Below are positions 8,704 to 25,919 of a stretch of 34,453 nt of DNA, piece after piece; the stretch's first letter is position 1, and the number at the start of each line of letters is the position of its first letter. Origin of the DNA: a virus. The translations under genes and the position numbers were made by a program. The stretch lies in the IMG/VR virus record IMGVR_UViG_3300017991_000049, positions 192,001 to 226,453 of that record; one strand, written 5' to 3'. The notes beneath the pieces were generated by a model that was given only the letters and a program-made list of their open reading frames with translations, was not told the DNA's origin and did not search any database.

Positions 8704-10835
8704 GCAGCTGGCAGTTCGATTGTGTTGTCAAAATGGTGCGATATCCGCGGTTCGTGTGTAACGAACAGCACCTGCAGCCCGCGCTCATGCGACAGGTCAC
8801 GCAGGCGCTCCAGCGCACGCGGCAAGCTGTCGAGGTTGTGCTCGTCCAGGCCTGCTGTGGGCTCGTCCATAATCAGTACACCAACCTGACCCGCGAAGGT
8901 CGAATTGACGGTGATCCGAAATGCCATCGCAAGTACGATGCGCTCGCCGATCGATAGTCGTCGGTCGGGCTGCACCCGCACGCCGTCAAGGAACCTGGCT
9001 GTGAAACCTAGGCTCTCGTCCATCTCCACGCGGAAAGGCGCTTCGAACATGGAGAGCGCTTCGTTCACCTGTTCTAGCATCATTTCCACGTAGGTGTAGG
9101 ACACCATCCGCGGCGCTTCGTTGCGATGAAACACGCTACGCACGTCGGTCAGGTGCTGCACTACCTCACGGGTCTTCTGTCCTTGAGCCAACGTCTTGCG
9201 AACGTTCTCAATCTGCTCTTGGACAGCAACGCGCTTTGCGTGTGCAAGCGCACGCTCGCGTGTAAACTGCTCCAGTTGCCGTTGCTTGGCCAGTATATCG
9301 GCGTTGGCTGCTTGCGCCTCGTCATGCTGCGCCTTGGTGTGCCACGGCTGTAACGCGTTGTGGGCGTCCTGGGCCTGCTGCAGCGCCTCAGCGAGCTGCT
9401 TACACTCGCCTTCCAGTGAGGACAGCTGCAGGGCCTTACTGGTCTTCTCAGCTTGAACCTGCTGCAAAGCTTCCTGGAAATGCGAACGCTCGTTCAGCGT
9501 CTTTTGAACTTCCTCTTCGGAGGTCTCGGGCGGGCTACACGCTTCGATCGCCAGACGTCGTCCTTCCAGCTGACGCTGGTCAGACGCCTTGTGCTTCATC
9601 TGCACGATGTATGCAGAGTCAGCCCTGTCATACACGTCCCACGTGTCCCTCCGCAGCCGTAGCGGCGGCATCTGCGCCTGTATCGCCGCCAGCTCGTCCT
9701 CCAACTCGGCCTTGCGCTGGGCGCGCTCGTTCGCGCCGGGCATCTTCTGGCCGCATGTAGGACAGGTATCCGCCTGGCCCATGTCCAGCAGATTGATACG
9801 AATATTACCACACGTATCTTCGAGGTACTTCAGCTGCTGCGCCTCCTCGTCGCTCAGGCGTGGCTCTGGTGGCTGCACCGGCGCGACTGTGTTCTCCCAC
9901 GTAGCTTTGAACGTAGCTTCGTCACGCTCAAGTGCAGCCCGCGTGGCTGCAGCAGCATGGTGGGCTTTCCACTGATCGCGTGCCTCCTCGGCGTCTGCAC
10001 AGTCCGGCGCAATCGCGGCTAGCCCAGCTTCAAGGTCGGCTATTGCGGCGTCCAAGTCACGTAGCGGTTCAGCCGCCGCTTTGGCTGCAGCCTCTTTGGC
10101 AGTGTACCGCCCCTGCAGCTCTTCGACGCGCGCCATCGCCTGGCGTTCGTCGTTGTACTGCTGGATCAACGTCTGGTTGGCATGCAGCTCAGTCTCCGGA
10201 TGCTCTGGCAGCTCCAGCGCAGCAATGTTGGCGTCCGCACCGGCGATAGCCTCGTCGTGCGTAGCCGCTTGATCATTCAGCTCGTCCTCCGTCAGCAGCG
10301 ACGTCGGAATCTCGATGGCGCTGACGAACTTACCCAGCTGCTCGTACACGCGCTCGGCGTGCGCCACGCCGAACAGTGCCGCCAAGGAAGCGGCCCGCTC
10401 TGCCGGCGGTTGGTCAAACATCTCGTCGATCTTGCGCTGGCGCACAAAGATGTAGTCGGCGATCTGCTTCTTGGTGGCGCCCAGTCTGCCCCACAGTTCG
10501 GAATTGATCTCGCCTACCGACGTCCACCGCGCATCGTCGATGGTCAGCAGATTGGTAGTACCCTGCAAAGCACGACGGACATGCATCCGCGCGCCGTAGT
10601 GTATCAACCAAGCTTCGACGAAGGCTTCTGCGTTACCTGGCGTACCCTGACGGATATCGTCGGCCTTCTTGCGCTCACCGCCGGCGTCGCCGATCAGTGC
10701 AAGCTGTATGGCGCGCAAGATGTTGGTCTTACCAGCGCCGTTCGGGCCAACGAGCATGTTGAGCCCAGGAGTCAGCTCGAGAGTTAGATCCTCGTGCTGG
10801 CAGAAATTCGCTAGGTGGAGTCGTTCTATGATCAT
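8700..10835 (-). CDS. sbcC: SbcC/Rad50-like SMC-family ATPase
   Basis: N-terminal Walker A MLVGPNGAGKTNIL. Long coiled-coil with zinc-hook CPTCGQ. C-terminal signature LSIGERIVLAMAF, Walker B VLIMDEPTAGLDE, H-loop LFVTHE. Confidence 0.85.
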   Translation of the reverse strand: MIIERLHLANFCQHEDLTLELTPGLNMLVGPNGAGKTNILRAIQLALIGDAGGERKKADDIRQGTPGNAEAFVEAWLIHYGARMHVRRALQGTTNLLTIDDARWTSVGEINSELWGRLGATKKQIADYIFVRQRKIDEMFDQPPAERAASLAALFGVAHAERVYEQLGKFVSAIEIPTSLLTEDELNDQAATHDEAIAGADANIAALELPEHPETELHANQTLIQQYNDERQAMARVEELQGRYTAKEAAAKAAAEPLRDLDAAIADLEAGLAAIAPDCADAEEARDQWKAHHAAAATRAALERDEATFKATWENTVAPVQPPEPRLSDEEAQQLKYLEDTCGNIRINLLDMGQADTCPTCGQKMPGANERAQRKAELEDELAAIQAQMPPLRLRRDTWDVYDRADSAYIVQMKHKASDQRQLEGRRLAIEACSPPETSEEEVQKTLNERSHFQEALQQVQAEKTSKALQLSSLEGECKQLAEALQQAQDAHNALQPWHTKAQHDEAQAANADILAKQRQLEQFTRERALAHAKRVAVQEQIENVRKTLAQGQKTREVVQHLTDVRSVFHRNEAPRMVSYTYVEMMLEQVNEALSMFEAPFRVEMDESLGFTARFLDGVRVQPDRRLSIGERIVLAMAFRITVNSTFAGQVGVLIMDEPTAGLDEHNLDSLPRALERLRDLSHERGLQVLFVTHEPRISHHFDNTIELPAA

Positions 10836-13198: not shown

Positions 13199-13487
13199 CG
13201 ATATCCGCAAAGAGTCGCTTCTTAGCGCATACTGCCAGCTTATGGGCCTGGGACACGCTCACGCAACGCACTGATTCGCGCTGCCCTGCTGCCTGTCCAC
13301 GGCCCGAGGCTGGCCAGTAGTCCGCCAGGTGTTTATCGCCGTACTTGAAACGCCAATGCTGGTCGTTGTCGCTCAGCGTGACAGTGATCTGCTCGAAGGC
13401 AAGCTCGCTCTGGAGCATTTCCAGTTCAGCTGTTGCTGACTGGAGCCGCTGTTTGCGGATCTGCTTCTTCTTGCTCATCTGCTGCAC
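13161..13487 (-). CDS. hypothetical small protein (doubtful)
   Basis: 108-aa ORF. Overlaps the hldE 3' end by 62 nt and is convergent with csrA, overlapping it by 38 nt. Lys-rich N-terminus. An internal ATG at 13418 would remove the overlap. Confidence 0.3.
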   Translation of the reverse strand: MQQMSKKKQIRKQRLQSATAELEMLQSELAFEQITVTLSDNDQHWRFKYGDKHLADYWPASGRGQAAGQRESVRCVSVSQAHKLAVCAKKRLFADIANALQVVEVASF

Positions 13488-14919
13488 AGGCTTTCGCGCG
13501 GATGTCGGTCGCGTGCGTATCGAACTCGAGCGTCGTCGTCATGATACGGCCGCCGACCTCCTCCATCGTCAGCGCTTCTGGAATCCGATCGGTCTTGCCG
13601 GCGTGCTCGGGGCCCTTGAACAGGACCGTCGGTACCAGATTGTGGATAAGTGACTTGGGTGTGTCTTCGTCGAACTTGATGATCGCATCGACGCACGGTA
13701 GCGCTGCCAAACTCGCGGCACGCGTGGCGTAGTCGTTGATCGGCTTGCTCTTGATGCGGGCGGCCGACTCGTCCGAATTCAACATGACGAGTAGGAAATC
13801 GCACTCTTTGCGCGCCTGCTCCAGCATGGAGACATGCCCAGGATGCATCAGATCGAAAACACCGTTGGCTACGCCGAAGTCGCCGCCGCTGACCATCATG
13901 GATGCGCGCAGCAGCATAGCAAAAGGCAGCTCTATCTTCTTGAGCTGATTGCCAGATACAATGGTCAGCCGCCTGTGTATCTGGTGCAGTGACACCGCGG
14001 ATGCGCCAGGGCGCTCTACCTGTATCGCTGCGGCCGTTGCTGCAAAGTGCAACATGGGCATCAAAGACATATCGGCAGCGACGCCATAGGTGAACGCTGC
14101 AGCAACAGTGTCGCCAGCACCGCACGAGTCGACCGCTAGTGCTGGCACAGCTGGCATCTCGGACGGCGTCTCGTTCGGGCGCACTATGAGCATACCGGCA
14201 GCGCCACGCGTCACGATGCAATGCACAGCGTGCAGTTCCTTGCAGACCGCCATAGCCGCCGAGCGTACGTCAGCAATCCGCGGGTCGGCGACTGCCGCAA
14301 GCACCTCATGCTCATTGGGCGTAATGATATGCGCACCACGATAGTGAAGCATATGCTTCGGCGTCGGGTCTACGACCACCGGTACTTTGTGTGCGCGCGC
14401 ATACTCGAAGATGACCTGGAGCGTACGCTCCGTGCAAATACCTTTGTCGTAGTCGGACACAAGGATCGCAAGTGGTTTCGCGTCGTCGACACACTTCATG
14501 AACATGTCGACCACCTTGTCCTCGACATTGGCCTTCGGGCGTGCGTCTATGTCGAAGCGAGCTACCAGACTGTCAGCTGCGTACACGCGGTGTTTGCAGG
14601 GCGTTTGGTAGTTCTTATCCGTGGCTACATACCGCGTCAGCAGCTCCGGTAGTTCCATGTTCAAGAAGTTCCGGCCGGCGGTGTCATCGCCTACGACGCT
14701 TACGAACGCCGTGGGCATCGCCATATGTACGAGATTGGCCATCGCGTTGGCGGCACCGCCCAAGCCAAGGAAGGGCGTACCAGGTGGCACGTCTATGACG
14801 GGAACTGCAGCGGTTTGGTCAAGCTGCTTCACCGTTCCCATGTAGTAGTGGTCCATAAGCACAGGTCCGACTACGACCACGCGGTCGCCTTCATCCTGTG
14901 CTGGGTGATTCGTCGTCAA
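13426..14919 (-). CDS. hldE: Bifunctional HldE/RfaE-like D-beta-D-heptose-7-phosphate kinase / heptose-1-phosphate adenylyltransferase
   Basis: N-terminal pfkB/ribokinase-like domain: VVVVGPVLMDHYY...GLGGAANAMANL and DSCGAGDTV. C-terminal cytidylyltransferase domain with HxGH motif: ANGVFDLMHPGHVSML...LNSDES...KFDEDTP...LFKG. Collinear with E. coli HldE over both domains. TTG start at 14919 preceded by GGAGAG. Confidence 0.85.
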   Translation of the reverse strand: MTTNHPAQDEGDRVVVVGPVLMDHYYMGTVKQLDQTAAVPVIDVPPGTPFLGLGGAANAMANLVHMAMPTAFVSVVGDDTAGRNFLNMELPELLTRYVATDKNYQTPCKHRVYAADSLVARFDIDARPKANVEDKVVDMFMKCVDDAKPLAILVSDYDKGICTERTLQVIFEYARAHKVPVVVDPTPKHMLHYRGAHIITPNEHEVLAAVADPRIADVRSAAMAVCKELHAVHCIVTRGAAGMLIVRPNETPSEMPAVPALAVDSCGAGDTVAAAFTYGVAADMSLMPMLHFAATAAAIQVERPGASAVSLHQIHRRLTIVSGNQLKKIELPFAMLLRASMMVSGGDFGVANGVFDLMHPGHVSMLEQARKECDFLLVMLNSDESAARIKSKPINDYATRAASLAALPCVDAIIKFDEDTPKSLIHNLVPTVLFKGPEHAGKTDRIPEALTMEEVGGRIMTTTLEFDTHATDIRAKACAADEQEEADPQTAAPVSNS

Positions 14920-17122: not shown

Positions 17123-17154
17123 AAAAAACCCCGGGCGCCCGAAGGCGCCCAGGG
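17123..17154 (-). terminator. Rho-independent terminator (minus strand)
   Basis: On the minus strand: CCCUGGGCGCC-UUCG-GGCGCCCGGGG (11-bp stem with one G-U pair and a UUCG tetraloop) followed by UUUUUU. Lies just after the stop of the 17168-17872 gene. Confidence 0.75.
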
Positions 17155-17167
17155 CCCATGAGTTCCG

Positions 17168-17872
17168 CTACGCCTCGATCAGCGCGGCCGTACGTCTCTC
17201 GACGGCTTCGTCGATCATCCGCTTAGCGCTTACCAACGCCGCAGCAGCCTCGATGGGCGCCGTCTGTTGCAACGACGTTGCCGTACCGAGCATGCGCTCG
17301 CCGTGCGCGATGATCTCGCCGGTCGTCAAACCGGACAGGTCGACCACGTTGACATCACTGCTGGGTGCGACGATGCGATCGTCTACCGTCGGCGACGCGC
17401 TCGCGGGAGTCGCTTCGGGCGCGTCGTCGCGGATCGGCTTGATCCGTCGTGGCACGGGCTGGCGGGCGGCCCAGCTCTTGGACCTGTGCGACTCTACCAG
17501 CTCCGGGTCGTGGCCTGCGGCGATGCAGGCGTCCATCGCCTCGGTGTGCGTACCGCGATGCAGATGCTTCAGCCACCACTGGCGCAACCAGCGCGAAGCG
17601 GCCGTCAGGCGCGGGTCGTCGAGACCGTTGGCCTTGCCGTTCTTCTTCGCGTTGCGCGTCTTTGTCAGTTTGCTACGCGCTGCGCGCAGCTTGCCGGCTT
17701 TGTTCAGCAGCCAACGCACAGCGTGTGACCGCTTCAACAGATACTCCTCGTCCTCGTTCTCGAAGCCGTGCTTCTGCAGGTAGGCGACCGCTGTCGGATG
17801 CTCGTCGTCGGGGTGAGCCAACCAGAACTTCTCCAACGCGATCGTCAAAGGCTGCTTTTCCTTACGTGCCAT
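17168..17872 (-). CDS. hypothetical protein
   Basis: ATG at 17872 with a GGAGGTG SD. Basic central region. Last gene of the pilin-like operon before the terminator. The ORF-track start at 17923 is less likely. Confidence 0.5.
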   Translation of the reverse strand: MARKEKQPLTIALEKFWLAHPDDEHPTAVAYLQKHGFENEDEEYLLKRSHAVRWLLNKAGKLRAARSKLTKTRNAKKNGKANGLDDPRLTAASRWLRQWWLKHLHRGTHTEAMDACIAAGHDPELVESHRSKSWAARQPVPRRIKPIRDDAPEATPASASPTVDDRIVAPSSDVNVVDLSGLTTGEIIAHGERMLGTATSLQQTAPIEAAAALVSAKRMIDEAVERRTAALIEA

Positions 17873-17927
17873 GAGACACCTCCATAGGAAAAAGGTTACG
17901 GCGCTGCGCATAGGCAGCACCACGTGT

Positions 17928-18224
17928 TCACCAGTGATACTGGCGAAGGAAATCGCAGATCGGGCCGTCGGCGTCGATCCGCACGAAATCTATCTCGTGG
18001 CTGTGCGCCACAGACAGTATGTGTCCCACCGAGGGACTGAAGCCAAAGTCGTTAAGGGTCTCTAGGATGCCGTCGCCGAAATCGTCCGGTACACCAACCC
18101 AGAAACCCTCAGGGTATTCCTCTACACCTAGATCTGCACACTGGCCTAGCGCATTCGCGTCTTCGGCAGTGATATGACAGGTGTTGATCGTCCAGAGTCG
18201 ACGAATATCTAGCGGTTCGGTCAT
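17928..18224 (-). CDS. hypothetical acidic small protein
   Basis: 98-aa ORF overlapping the pilin-like gene stop (ATGA-type coupling). Confidence 0.45.
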   Translation of the reverse strand: MTEPLDIRRLWTINTCHITAEDANALGQCADLGVEEYPEGFWVGVPDDFGDGILETLNDFGFSPSVGHILSVAHSHEIDFVRIDADGPICDFLRQYHW

Positions 18225-18646
18225 TGCATTAGCTCCCGTACCGCATCTTCGTCGCGCGAATCGACGTCGATCTCAGTCACTGTGCCGTTCGCAATGTCGT
18301 TCGACATCACGGACAAGAGGCGCCCCCTGGGAGCTACATTGCCTTCATACTGTATAATTCCCTGAATTTGCGCTGCCTTGAGGCGTACTTTGCGCACCTG
18401 CGCTACAAGCGAAAGACAATCAGCGTCAGCCGCCTTCACATAGAAATGGTGCCGACTATCGATGACACCTTCCCACTGAGCCTTGGCTGCGACATACTGT
18501 AAGCGCGTTACCGGACCGAACACTTCCTCGGTACGCGTAGTGTGTCCGACAGAGAACTTGCCGATCGCGCCGACGAGCAGCGAAGCCAATATCCCCACGA
18601 TCGCGATGACTACTAGTAGCTCTACAACGGTAAACGCTCGACGCAT
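18221..18646 (-). CDS. type IV pilin / pseudopilin-like protein (prepilin-type N-terminal domain)
   Basis: N-terminus MRRA-FTVVELLVVIAIVGILASLLVG matches the class III signal/N-methylation consensus ([KR]-G-FTLIELLVVIAIIGILAA) including Glu+5, but has Ala instead of Gly at -1. Strong SD AAGGAGG. Confidence 0.6.
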   Translation of the reverse strand: MRRAFTVVELLVVIAIVGILASLLVGAIGKFSVGHTTRTEEVFGPVTRLQYVAAKAQWEGVIDSRHHFYVKAADADCLSLVAQVRKVRLKAAQIQGIIQYEGNVAPRGRLLSVMSNDIANGTVTEIDVDSRDEDAVRELMQ

Positions 18647-18773
18647 TTGGAGCCTCCTTTTTGCTCATGAGATCAAGATTGAAACTACCCAGCCTGCCTA
18701 TCCTCGCTGAAGCCCGTGGAATCTCGAGACAGCGAGGTGTGGTTGAGTGTACTTGTAACCTGTTGTCCGACAA

Positions 18774-18852
18774 GGACTTAGGTCAACACCCCTCGAATGG
18801 CGGTTAGCTCTTAGAAAATGTATATCTAAGTCCTCATTACATTCGGACTTAG
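18774..18852. promoter_or_regulatory. intergenic repeat cluster: GGACTTAG / CTAAGTCC 8-mers including a hairpin-forming inverted pair
   Basis: GGACTTAG at 18774-18781 and 18845-18852. CTAAGTCC at 18826-18833. The latter two form a CTAAGTCC-N11-GGACTTAG inverted repeat. A TTGACC -35-like hexamer sits at 18786-18781 on the minus strand. Confidence 0.4.
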
Positions 18853-18937
18853 AAACCCGCCTCGGCCGGATATTCTATCCGTCCTTCTCCGGGGTGGTAG
18901 TTTTGAAGACTATTTGGGGGTATCGGAGAAATAGGTA

Positions 18938-19474
18938 TCAGTGTCCTGCCTTAGCACTAGCAATTACCAGACAGACAGCTCCAGCTGTCGCCATGATACC
19001 CGTCACCCAAAAGCCCATGCACCAGGCTACCTGGCTGGGGTAAACGACAATGTTTGGCGGTAGCGTGACCTCCACGCCCTCGCTGTCATCGTCCAGGAGC
19101 GTCTCTCGTAGTTTCATCAGTTGGTTGGACACCGTCAAGGGGTCCGCGTCGGTTGGGAACGCGCGCAACTCGTCCAGCGCTGACTTCACATTGTTGTGCC
19201 AGAAGGTCACATCACAATCAGGGGTATACCACAATACGTGTGAGCGCCCTGTCGTGCAGCCGCGCCGGTTCATTCCTTCGAGCGCCGCCGTCAGCTCTGT
19301 CTTGGCCATCTCGATCGAGTTGGCATCCGCGGCGCGCTTCAGTCGCCCGCCAACATCTTGATCGAATCCGATCTCCATGACAAAGCGTGTGACTACCATG
19401 GCTAGCAGTGGTACGCACAGTACGCACCCACCAATGAACCATCCACCAGCTCCGCTACTCCGTCTGTAACTCAT
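18938..19474 (-). CDS. hypothetical membrane protein (N- and C-terminal TM helices)
   Basis: Hydrophobic stretches WFIGGCVLCVPLLAMVV and FWVTGIMATAGAVCLVIA. ATG at 19474. The ORF-track TTG is at 19516. Confidence 0.45.
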   Translation of the reverse strand: MSYRRSSGAGGWFIGGCVLCVPLLAMVVTRFVMEIGFDQDVGGRLKRAADANSIEMAKTELTAALEGMNRRGCTTGRSHVLWYTPDCDVTFWHNNVKSALDELRAFPTDADPLTVSNQLMKLRETLLDDDSEGVEVTLPPNIVVYPSQVAWCMGFWVTGIMATAGAVCLVIASAKAGH

Positions 19475-25340: not shown

Positions 25341-25919
25341 GTGGACATTGGCCTTGGTTGGTTATCGGACTTTGTGCGATGGGTGTCGCGAATCTTCCCG
25401 CGCGGCTTACACGTGGATGCCACGCAGGAAGGTGTGATGCTCACGCTCAGTAGAGCGAAGCGCATCAGGCCTGGCTTCCATATCTACTGGCCTCCCATCC
25501 AACGGCCGATGGTCCATCCGGTTAAGCGCGACTCTTTCGAAGTCGGCGTGCAGACTCTACCGCACAGATCCGAACGCCCGATTGGCATTTGCATCTCTGT
25601 TACTGTAGTCTACACGATTGGCGACATAATGAAAGCGCTGGTTGACACCTACAACTTCCCGTCGACCATCAAAGACCGAGCGCAGGGCGCTGTCATAGGC
25701 GCATGCATCGGCAAGACGATCACCGAACTAGCCGACAATCACCAGAAGATTAACGCGGCGCTAACACGCAGAATGCGTAAGGCGCTCGACAAATACGGCG
25801 TCGAAGTGGAAGAGGCATTCATGTCCGACTTCCACCTGTCCAACATGCATCGAGTACACGGCGGCACAACAGTCCTACCGATGGACGCTGCCGAGGAAGA
25901 AGAGGAGGAAGAGGAATGA
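25341..25919 (+). CDS. hypothetical protein with poly-Glu C-terminus (weak SPFH/band-7-like segment)
   Basis: GTG start at 25341 (alternative ATG at 25437). The segment INAALTRRMRKALDKYGVEVEEAFMSDF loosely resembles SPFH-domain proteins. Ends EEEEEEEE. Confidence 0.45.
   Translation: MDIGLGWLSDFVRWVSRIFPRGLHVDATQEGVMLTLSRAKRIRPGFHIYWPPIQRPMVHPVKRDSFEVGVQTLPHRSERPIGICISVTVVYTIGDIMKALVDTYNFPSTIKDRAQGAVIGACIGKTITELADNHQKINAALTRRMRKALDKYGVEVEEAFMSDFHLSNMHRVHGGTTVLPMDAAEEEEEEEE

Follow-up and report, generated by a model that had tools for sequence, protein, structure and literature searches.

A prepilin-type N-terminus joined to a predicted AB5-toxin-B-like OB fold in a putative membrane protein family of uncultured phages

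That phages encode proteins with a type IV pilin N-terminus is already known from several PHROG families, P-FimU and P-PilA. Prophage-encoded FimU (P-FimU) and PilA-like proteins have been described for Pseudomonas and Xylella phages, PilA-like genes, including fragments that comprise only the N-terminus of PilA, are also carried by virulent phages, and P-FimU blocks tip-binding phages (Sztanko et al., Cell Rep 2026, PMC12952977). That such phage proteins serve as anti-phage replacements at the surface has been demonstrated only recently. Here we describe a gene of the same general type at positions 18221-18646 (minus strand) of a 34,453-nt stretch of viral DNA (positions 192,001 to 226,453 of the IMG/VR record IMGVR_UViG_3300017991_000049; the whole stretch is referred to as the window). 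In the reading that we prefer and consider somewhat more probable than not, its 141-aa product is not a pilin and instead represents a bitopic inner-membrane protein, in which a class III (prepilin-type) signal and anchor carries a periplasm-facing binding module with an oligonucleotide/oligosaccharide-binding (OB) fold. The gene and its parts are as follows.

18221 to 18646, minus strand: signal-anchor/OB-fold gene of 141 aa, an open reading frame (ORF) with a ribosome-binding site, identical DNA in 10 contigs of several metagenomes and five orthologs
18653 to 18660, minus strand: Shine-Dalgarno sequence AAAGGAGG, read from the sequence; the surrounding TTTGATCACATGAACAA-AAGGAGG block is kept in related loci
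18635 to 18646, minus strand: leader peptide MRRA, codons 1-4, with Ala at position -1, read directly from the sequence
18563 to 18634, minus strand: alpha1-N-like hydrophobic helix and membrane anchor, residues 5-28, based on PF07963, TIGR02532, the helix in the AlphaFold2 (AF2) model and pilin matches in the PDB
18224 to 18538, minus strand: predicted OB-fold head, residues 37-141, with the order b1-b2-b3-alpha-b4-b5, a short b6 and a C-terminal helix

The ORF is genuine: its ATG is preceded by AAAGGAGG at a distance of 6 nt, and a contig of 226.5 kb (ena:ERZ27256796:k141_2629452) as well as 16 further contigs, drawn from several metagenomes, carry the identical gene, with DNA that is ~100% identical throughout. 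Since an in-frame stop codon is located 7 codons 5' of the ATG and no alternative start lies in between, the leader is exactly MRRA.

The mature part following this leader starts with FTVVELLVVIAIVGILASLL, and the longer stretch reads FTVVELLVVIAIVGILASLLVGAIG, which places Ala at -1, Phe at +1, Thr at +2 and Glu at +5 (MRRA/FTVVE, the slash separating positions -1 and +1), followed by 20 uncharged residues. The initial annotation of this DNA had recognized a type IV prepilin-like N-terminus and named PilFind or InterPro as a check, and both the curated motif models and the PilFind rule bear it out. PF07963 (N_methyl) matches the protein with 22.8 bits against a gathering cut-off of 21.2 (E 6.6e-5) and TIGR02532 with 25.3 bits against a cut-off of 16.3 (E 9.4e-6); at these E-values only ~0.003 chance matches are expected for the about 45 ORFs in the window. 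The PilFind rule demands [GAS]-x4-[DE], at least 14 uncharged residues, one transmembrane (TM) helix and a length below 350 aa (PMC3244431), and the 141-aa protein complies with its single, strongly hydrophobic segment (Kyte-Doolittle peak 3.0), its basic leader of 4 aa, Phe at +1 (one of the F/M/L expected there) and Glu at +5. In the window and in ~8 kb of phage DNA flanking its left end, this is the sole ORF with a prepilin motif. The motif is also present in three orthologs of other phages, and the same N-terminus is common to several PHROG families, one of them annotated as pilin. Judged from the sequence, it is strongly supported that the N-terminus is a real class III signal.

The remainder of the protein is of a different kind. 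Using an alignment of the six known family members, AF2 yielded a mean pLDDT of 85.5 and a pTM of 0.67, with values above 80 in four of the five models and block means of ~80-96 over residues 41-141, on average above 90. The model comprises a helix (residues 7-31), a short linker of lower confidence, the strands b1 (37-52), b2 (57-62) and b3 (66-71), an alpha helix (77-89), b4 (93-101), b5 (107-117), a short b6 and a C-terminal helix; a run with the single sequence left the head at a pLDDT of 46 and gave no usable model. In a Foldseek search of the PDB, the B subunits of cholera toxin (CTB), heat-labile enterotoxin (LTB) and pertussis toxin were the best matches (E about 1e-3, TM-score about 0.6 per target), and the AF2 model thus shows similarity to the AB5 B-subunit fold, while only generic OB folds were retrieved from BFVD. 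Pilins are absent from the listed structural matches of this model. By definition, a pilin has an alpha1 helix of ~50 residues, and the C-terminal half of this helix packs against an antiparallel beta-meander of four strands (PMC4471445); in the AF2 model the helix stops at residue 31, and both alpha1-C and the pilin head are absent. This is in line with the sequence-profile search of the PDB, in which pilins match query positions 3-35 (up to 51) only, and with the full-length pilin models (GspG, GspH, PilA, ComG and others), which score below their cut-offs (TIGR01708 GspH 26 bits versus 80, GspG 18.8 versus 88.85), matches of this type being confined to N-terminal residues, at most 3-60. The head is confidently predicted by the model to adopt an OB fold that is most like AB5-toxin B subunits.

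When 1.84 billion representative proteins were searched exhaustively with phmmer, five full-length relatives with 140-165 aa and 28-43% identity to the query emerged, which brings the family to six known members. A word-index search returned only the protein itself when the full sequence was used and no candidates with residues 5-49, an OB-domain profile gave no additional members, tblastn of the protein against 50,697 deposited phage records produced no match, and pattern scans of IMG/VR and GTDB genomes revealed no relatives. Four of the five relatives occupy the syntenic position of the window gene on related phage contigs, in the order ligase, 5'-nucleotidase (NT5C), nucleoside diphosphate kinase (NDK), a gap of 300-575 bp, OB-anchor gene, a gene of ~234 aa, HldE and SbcC, with further genes lying between some of these and the order being read as far as each contig extends; the fifth (P0025) resides on a 2.5-kb contig that is too short for flanking genes. 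These data strongly support a phage-restricted and syntenic family in the replication regions of related uncultured phages of about 226 kb, for which we infer the label giant (jumbo) phage from size and gene content.

The N-termini of the six members, again with a slash between positions -1 and +1, are the following.

Window protein: A/FTVVE
P0002: G/FTLIE
P0008: G/FSAVE
P0025: A/LTLIE
P0003: D/FTTLK, with Asp at -1, Lys at +5 and a hydrophobic stretch of 52 residues
P0005: AG/RTFHN, with a single TM helix; Phe at +1 and Glu5 are lost

Pfam N_methyl matches four of the six members, and the other two (P0003 and P0005) are without the prepilin motif, yet keep a membrane helix and the OB domain. 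In P. aeruginosa, PilD no longer cleaves when the exchange G-1D is present (bioRxiv 10.1101/2022.05.13.491915), which makes processing of P0003 very unlikely. Remnants of the motif in P0003 and P0005 indicate, at the level of the sequences, an ancestor with a class III signal that was later lost in two lineages. Because these two orthologs have lost motif and Glu5 and still retain helix and head, the conserved function of the family would be an OB module held at the membrane. Invariant across all members are E41, G44, Y51, W58, A82, Y100 and G121, three of which are aromatic; Y51, W58, Y100 and E41 are candidate residues of a putative ligand site.

Some further candidates from the searches were discarded. 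Similarity to the planctomycete-like N_methyl proteins P0015, P0018, P0022 and P0023, which seemed to extend up to residues 77-99, was rejected; after removal of the first 25 residues, the E-values were 0.05-0.09 in a 24-sequence database and thus not significant. Matches to P0004, P0007, P0012 and P0017 were judged to be spurious sums of weak repeats.

Gly at position -1 had been taken as invariant in the initial annotation, which made the Ala of MRRA look anomalous, and this view does not hold. The authors of PilFind allow [GAS] at this position and describe cleavage after Gly or Ala (PMC3244431). To survey position -1, we used a DNA pattern encoding F-T-x-x-E-L-L-V-V-I-A-I-[IV]-G-I-L-A with position -1 left free and searched one genome per GTDB species, which gave at least 120 loci (L018-L137) holding 135 copies. 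Taxonomic groups were set by hand from record titles, the PVC group being composed of Planctomycetota, Verrucomicrobiota, Kiritimatiellia and Lentisphaerae, and the sample is not random or phylogenetically balanced. The residues at -1 are distributed as follows.

All copies listed: Gly 100, Ala 33 (24%), Lys 1, Arg 1; total 135
PVC group, among the matches listed: Gly 19, Ala 23 (52%), Lys 1, Arg 1; total 44
Hydrogenedentota, among the matches listed: Gly 33, Ala 1, other 0; total 34
Patescibacteria, among the matches listed: Gly 19, Ala 4, other 0; total 23

Ala at -1 is also frequent among the N-terminal-only matches of the exhaustive protein search, a set that is biased by the query. In this context, the frequency of Ala among the copies listed contradicts a review statement that bacterial leaders invariably end in Gly. 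Strom and Lory reportedly found in 1991 that P. aeruginosa pilin with the exchange G-1A is still partly cleaved. From these counts, Ala at -1 appears to be a normal and common natural variant that is apparently tolerated and does not represent a defect. It seems to be an ordinary form of the signal in PVC bacteria, which makes it a weak pointer to a PVC-type host, and the host prepilin peptidase is likely to cut after Ala-1 and thereby release MRRA.

For the preferred reading as a membrane-anchored OB module, the following sequence of events can be envisaged. A class III signal by itself directs insertion with the N-terminus inside and the C-terminus outside (PMC4471445), and the host-type signal of the phage protein would achieve this by way of SRP (signal recognition particle) and Sec, with the basic leader and its two Arg residues kept in the cytoplasm and the head in the periplasm. 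After removal of the leader by the host prepilin peptidase, the alpha1-N-like helix would tether the OB head of ~100 residues at the periplasmic face of the inner membrane. OB folds of the toxin-B type are oligomeric glycan binders. By analogy, the head could bind a periplasmic or envelope ligand, either a glycan or a protein, and thereby alter the envelope of the infected cell, with superinfection exclusion, receptor masking or envelope remodelling as possible outcomes; this part of the proposal is speculative. Several points weigh against this reading or parts of it. The structure is derived from an alignment of only six sequences and the Foldseek E-values are marginal (about 1e-3), and at the sequence level there is no link of the head to toxin-B families, as none of the six members matches a Pfam toxin-B family. 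Besides, the 52-residue hydrophobic stretch of P0003 means that topology may differ within the family, that a PVC prepilin peptidase cleaves after Ala is deduced from genomic abundance, and the retention of the motif and the buried Glu5 in four of the six lineages suggests selection for an interaction with the peptidase or a type IV filament rather than for anchoring as such.

This last point leads to the idea of a functional pilin or pseudopilin mimic, which had been raised in the initial annotation and which we regard as unlikely. Here, the processed alpha1-N would dock on the platform of a host type IV pilus or type II secretion system (T2SS), and the protein would either become part of the filament, with the OB head on display there, or cap or jam the assembly, so that pilus-dependent superinfection or host secretion is blocked. 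The full class III motif with Phe at +1 and Glu at +5 in four of six diverged orthologs fits well into this idea, as do the PHROG families with the same N-terminus, of which one is annotated as pilin; precedents are P-FimU, which is incorporated into pili and blocks phage adsorption (PMC12952977), and the archaeal bindosome, where class III signals carry non-pilin heads (PMC4471445). In the structural sense, however, the mimic finds no support in the AF2 model, in which an OB fold takes the place of the pilin fold: the helix ends at residue 31, alpha1-C and the pilin head are missing, and no pilin is found among the listed structural matches. Moreover, two of the six orthologs do without the motif, one of them with Asp at -1, while the rest of the protein is kept, similarity to host pilins is seen nowhere past the N-terminus, and there are no type IV filament genes among those annotated nearby. 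Of the outcomes that the initial annotation had named as speaking against a mimic, one half, the lack of a pilin-like fold in structure prediction, is what we found. Its alternative suggestion of an inner-membrane-anchored infection protein fits better with the predicted OB head and the loss of the motif in two orthologs. A more far-reaching variant, which we consider quite improbable, is a modular type IV filament subunit in which the pilin head has been swapped for an AB5-toxin-B-like OB lectin, in phages that probably infect PVC-type bacteria. If true, the host peptidase and the pilus or T2SS machinery would process the module and display or position it, and the phage would decorate or block filaments, be it to exclude superinfection or to change how the host adheres; as a side result Ala, and not Gly, would be the majority -1 residue of PVC class III signals, against the textbook view of an invariant Gly.

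At the other end stands a plain uncleaved signal-anchor, whose class III likeness stems from ancestry or convergence and which does not interact with a peptidase. Two of the six orthologs manage without the motif, the head is unrelated to pilins, and the leader of 4 residues is below the range of 6-26 aa for studied pilins (PMC4471445), all of which speaks for such a protein. Nevertheless, the motif scores above curated thresholds in four orthologs, a charged Glu comes at a cost in a TM helix if it is not selected for, four-residue leaders such as MKKG/FTLIE are present in genomic class III proteins, and Ala at -1 is common in genomes rich in such proteins, which leaves this explanation distinctly unlikely. 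A component of lysis timing or of the virion, such as a bitopic protein of the antiholin type or an assembly factor associated with the membrane, is highly improbable. It would be in line with the presence of further membrane proteins in the vicinity (2-TM protein, 18938-19474; Band_7 protein, 25341-25919) and with the architecture, in which a small globular domain in the periplasm follows an N-terminal TM helix and which we take to resemble that of T4 RI-type antiholins. In contrast, no holin, endolysin, spanin or structural genes are found in the window, the neighbourhood deals with replication and nucleotide metabolism, and the strongly hydrophobic helix is unlike signal-anchor-release domains.

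The gene had also been predicted to head an operon of three genes (pilin-like, ORF98, ORF234) that ends at a terminator, and gene overlap, intergenic gap and hairpin agree with this prediction. The additional elements of the unit are the following.

17928 to 18224, minus strand: ORF98, DUF5983 family (PF19419, 46.3 bits versus a cut-off of 27), the start of which overlaps the upstream stop (ATGA)
17168 to 17872, minus strand: ORF234, third gene, without known family (gene call in locus L001)
17123 to 17154, minus strand: intrinsic terminator closing the unit, with a 14-bp GC-rich stem, a UUCG loop and a U6 tract, -29 kcal/mol, z -3.4
18820 to 18853, minus strand: conserved upstream hairpin with the 9-bp stem TCTAAGTCC/GGACTTAGA and the 11-nt loop GAATGTAATGA, running into ATATAC

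ORF234 starts 55 nt after ORF98 and has no Pfam, NCBIfam or PADLOC match; genes of similar length occupy its slot in the related loci L011 and L012, the likeness being one of length and position. The gap between ORF98 and ORF234 harbours a weaker, terminator-like hairpin (17898-17923, minus strand) with a stem of 9-10 bp and -16.6 kcal/mol, followed by CUUUUUC, which could attenuate read-through into ORF234. A DUF5983 protein is encoded by the next or next-but-one gene in four of six loci, and the downstream gene is unrelated in the other two, for which reason a strict functional pairing of both proteins was rejected. One paper places DUF5983 in E. coli, downstream of the toxin CbtA (PMC10790755), and another assigns to the family a two-layer a+b fold of the glyoxalase-like kind (bioRxiv 10.1101/2024.01.30.577995); in the uncultured giant phages considered here, its gene is conserved. 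In the phage of P0003 (L012), an extra ORF of 76 aa (10495-10725) without a family match is inserted between the membrane protein gene and the DUF5983 gene, with a 4-nt overlap at each side.

The upstream hairpin (-12.9 kcal/mol, z -2.5) is located in an intergenic region of 290 nt and is kept in five phage loci with compensatory changes in the stem, one copy per locus in the sequence examined. The covarying stems are TCTAAGTCC/GGACTTAGA, TCTTAGTCC/GGACTAAGA, TATTAGTCC/GGACTAATA, TAAGAGTAC/GTACTCTTA and TATCAGTCT/AGACTGGTA, the loop follows the consensus GAAnGnAnnGA, and TATA(C/G)A directly follows the hairpin, for which Rfam gave no match. From this pattern, the hairpin is likely a candidate operator, promoter or leader RNA of the operon. 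With a conserved upstream element on one side and a strong terminator on the other, the sequence strongly supports that the gene lies in its own transcription unit. The same region contains a second, upstream hairpin (18864-18884), which covaries as well, and a box TAAGTCC at 18774-18780; a third copy of the half-site lies ~70 nt downstream of the conserved hairpin.

The window as a whole represents a phage module for replication and nucleotide metabolism. Its genes include a primase, a DnaB-like helicase, a second helicase, SbcC, a phosphoesterase, an exonuclease and an NAD-dependent ligase together with NDK, a 5'-nucleotidase, a weak match to dNMP kinases and an HldE-like kinase/cytidylyltransferase. 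Neither the annotated ORFs of the window nor the 20-kb flanks of the orthologs contain type IV filament genes (ATPase, platform protein, peptidase), the helicase and SbcC of the window have no tblastn match among the 50,697 deposited phage records, and PADLOC, Rfam and tRNA scans returned nothing. The HldE-like bifunctional protein (13426-14919, minus strand) combines a PfkB sugar kinase (122 bits) with a cytidylyltransferase-like domain (56 bits) and is kept in the related phage locus L014; it could belong to a pathway for heptose-nucleotides or other sugar-nucleotides, either as an auxiliary gene or for the modification of DNA or glycans. On the opposite strand within the replication module, a 58-aa gene of the CsrA family (PF02599, precomputed Pfam match in L001; 13022-13198, plus strand) is a possible phage-encoded post-transcriptional regulator. 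Directly upstream of the OB-anchor gene lies the 178-aa 2-TM protein (18938-19474, minus strand), which has a hydrophobic segment at each end, shares 46-62% identity with counterparts in two related phages and is absent from two others; a linkage to the OB-anchor gene was rejected, as it is present in only three of five loci. The Band_7/SPFH-domain protein (25341-25919, plus strand) has 192 aa and is membrane-associated. Beyond the left end of the window, a 1073-aa family A DNA polymerase (L138, 11152-14373; ena:ERZ27256796:k141_2629452) carries an N-terminal uracil-DNA-glycosylase-family domain (UDG + DNA_pol_A_exo1 + DNA_pol_A).

Even in its conservative form, the analysis assigns a confidently predicted fold to an ORFan family and gives a weak clue to the host, namely the PVC-type signal, of a phage clade without cultured relatives, as well as evidence that the rule of an invariant Gly-1 for judging prepilin signals fails across phyla. 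If the OB head is displayed on type IV filaments or blocks them, this would be a new viral route to manipulate these machines.

Compared with the AB5 B subunits (pertussis toxin S5, S2 and S3, SubB, PltB, CTB, LTB and Stx B), the phage protein has an identity of only about 10%, is anchored by a class III helix and not Sec-released, and has DUF5983 and unknowns as neighbours instead of an adjacent A-subunit gene. CcmE-type proteins likewise have a periplasmic OB barrel behind an N-terminal TM anchor, although sequence similarity is absent and the Foldseek match (8ce8_E, E 1.4e-2) is far weaker than those of toxin B subunits. The carriers of TIGR02532/PF07963 in PVC bacteria resemble the phage protein in the consensus FT[LV][IV]ELLVVIAI[IV]GILA, the frequent Ala at -1 and the short basic leaders, but homology ends after the first 25 or so residues, and the phage head has no cellular relatives among the 1.84 billion representative proteins. 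P-FimU and the PilA-like proteins are likewise phage-encoded and start with a type IV pilin N-terminus, superinfection exclusion via the pilus having been shown for P-FimU; in contrast to the window protein, they are homologous to host FimU or PilA over the full length and have pilin folds. The pilin similarity of the window protein stops at about residue 35-50 and gives way to a predicted OB fold, and past residue 25 there is no significant match to the N_methyl proteins retrieved. We came across no description of a protein in which a class III anchor is fused to a head modelled as toxin-B-like OB fold and which is conserved in an uncultured giant-phage clade. The sugar-binding proteins of the Sulfolobus bindosome also use a class III signal to place a non-pilin binding domain at the surface or membrane (PMC4471445); they differ in being archaeal cellular proteins with the dedicated Bas assembly system and show no homology to the phage protein. 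The predicted structure suggests that a pilin signal and anchor can join an unrelated binding fold, here in an uncultured phage lineage.

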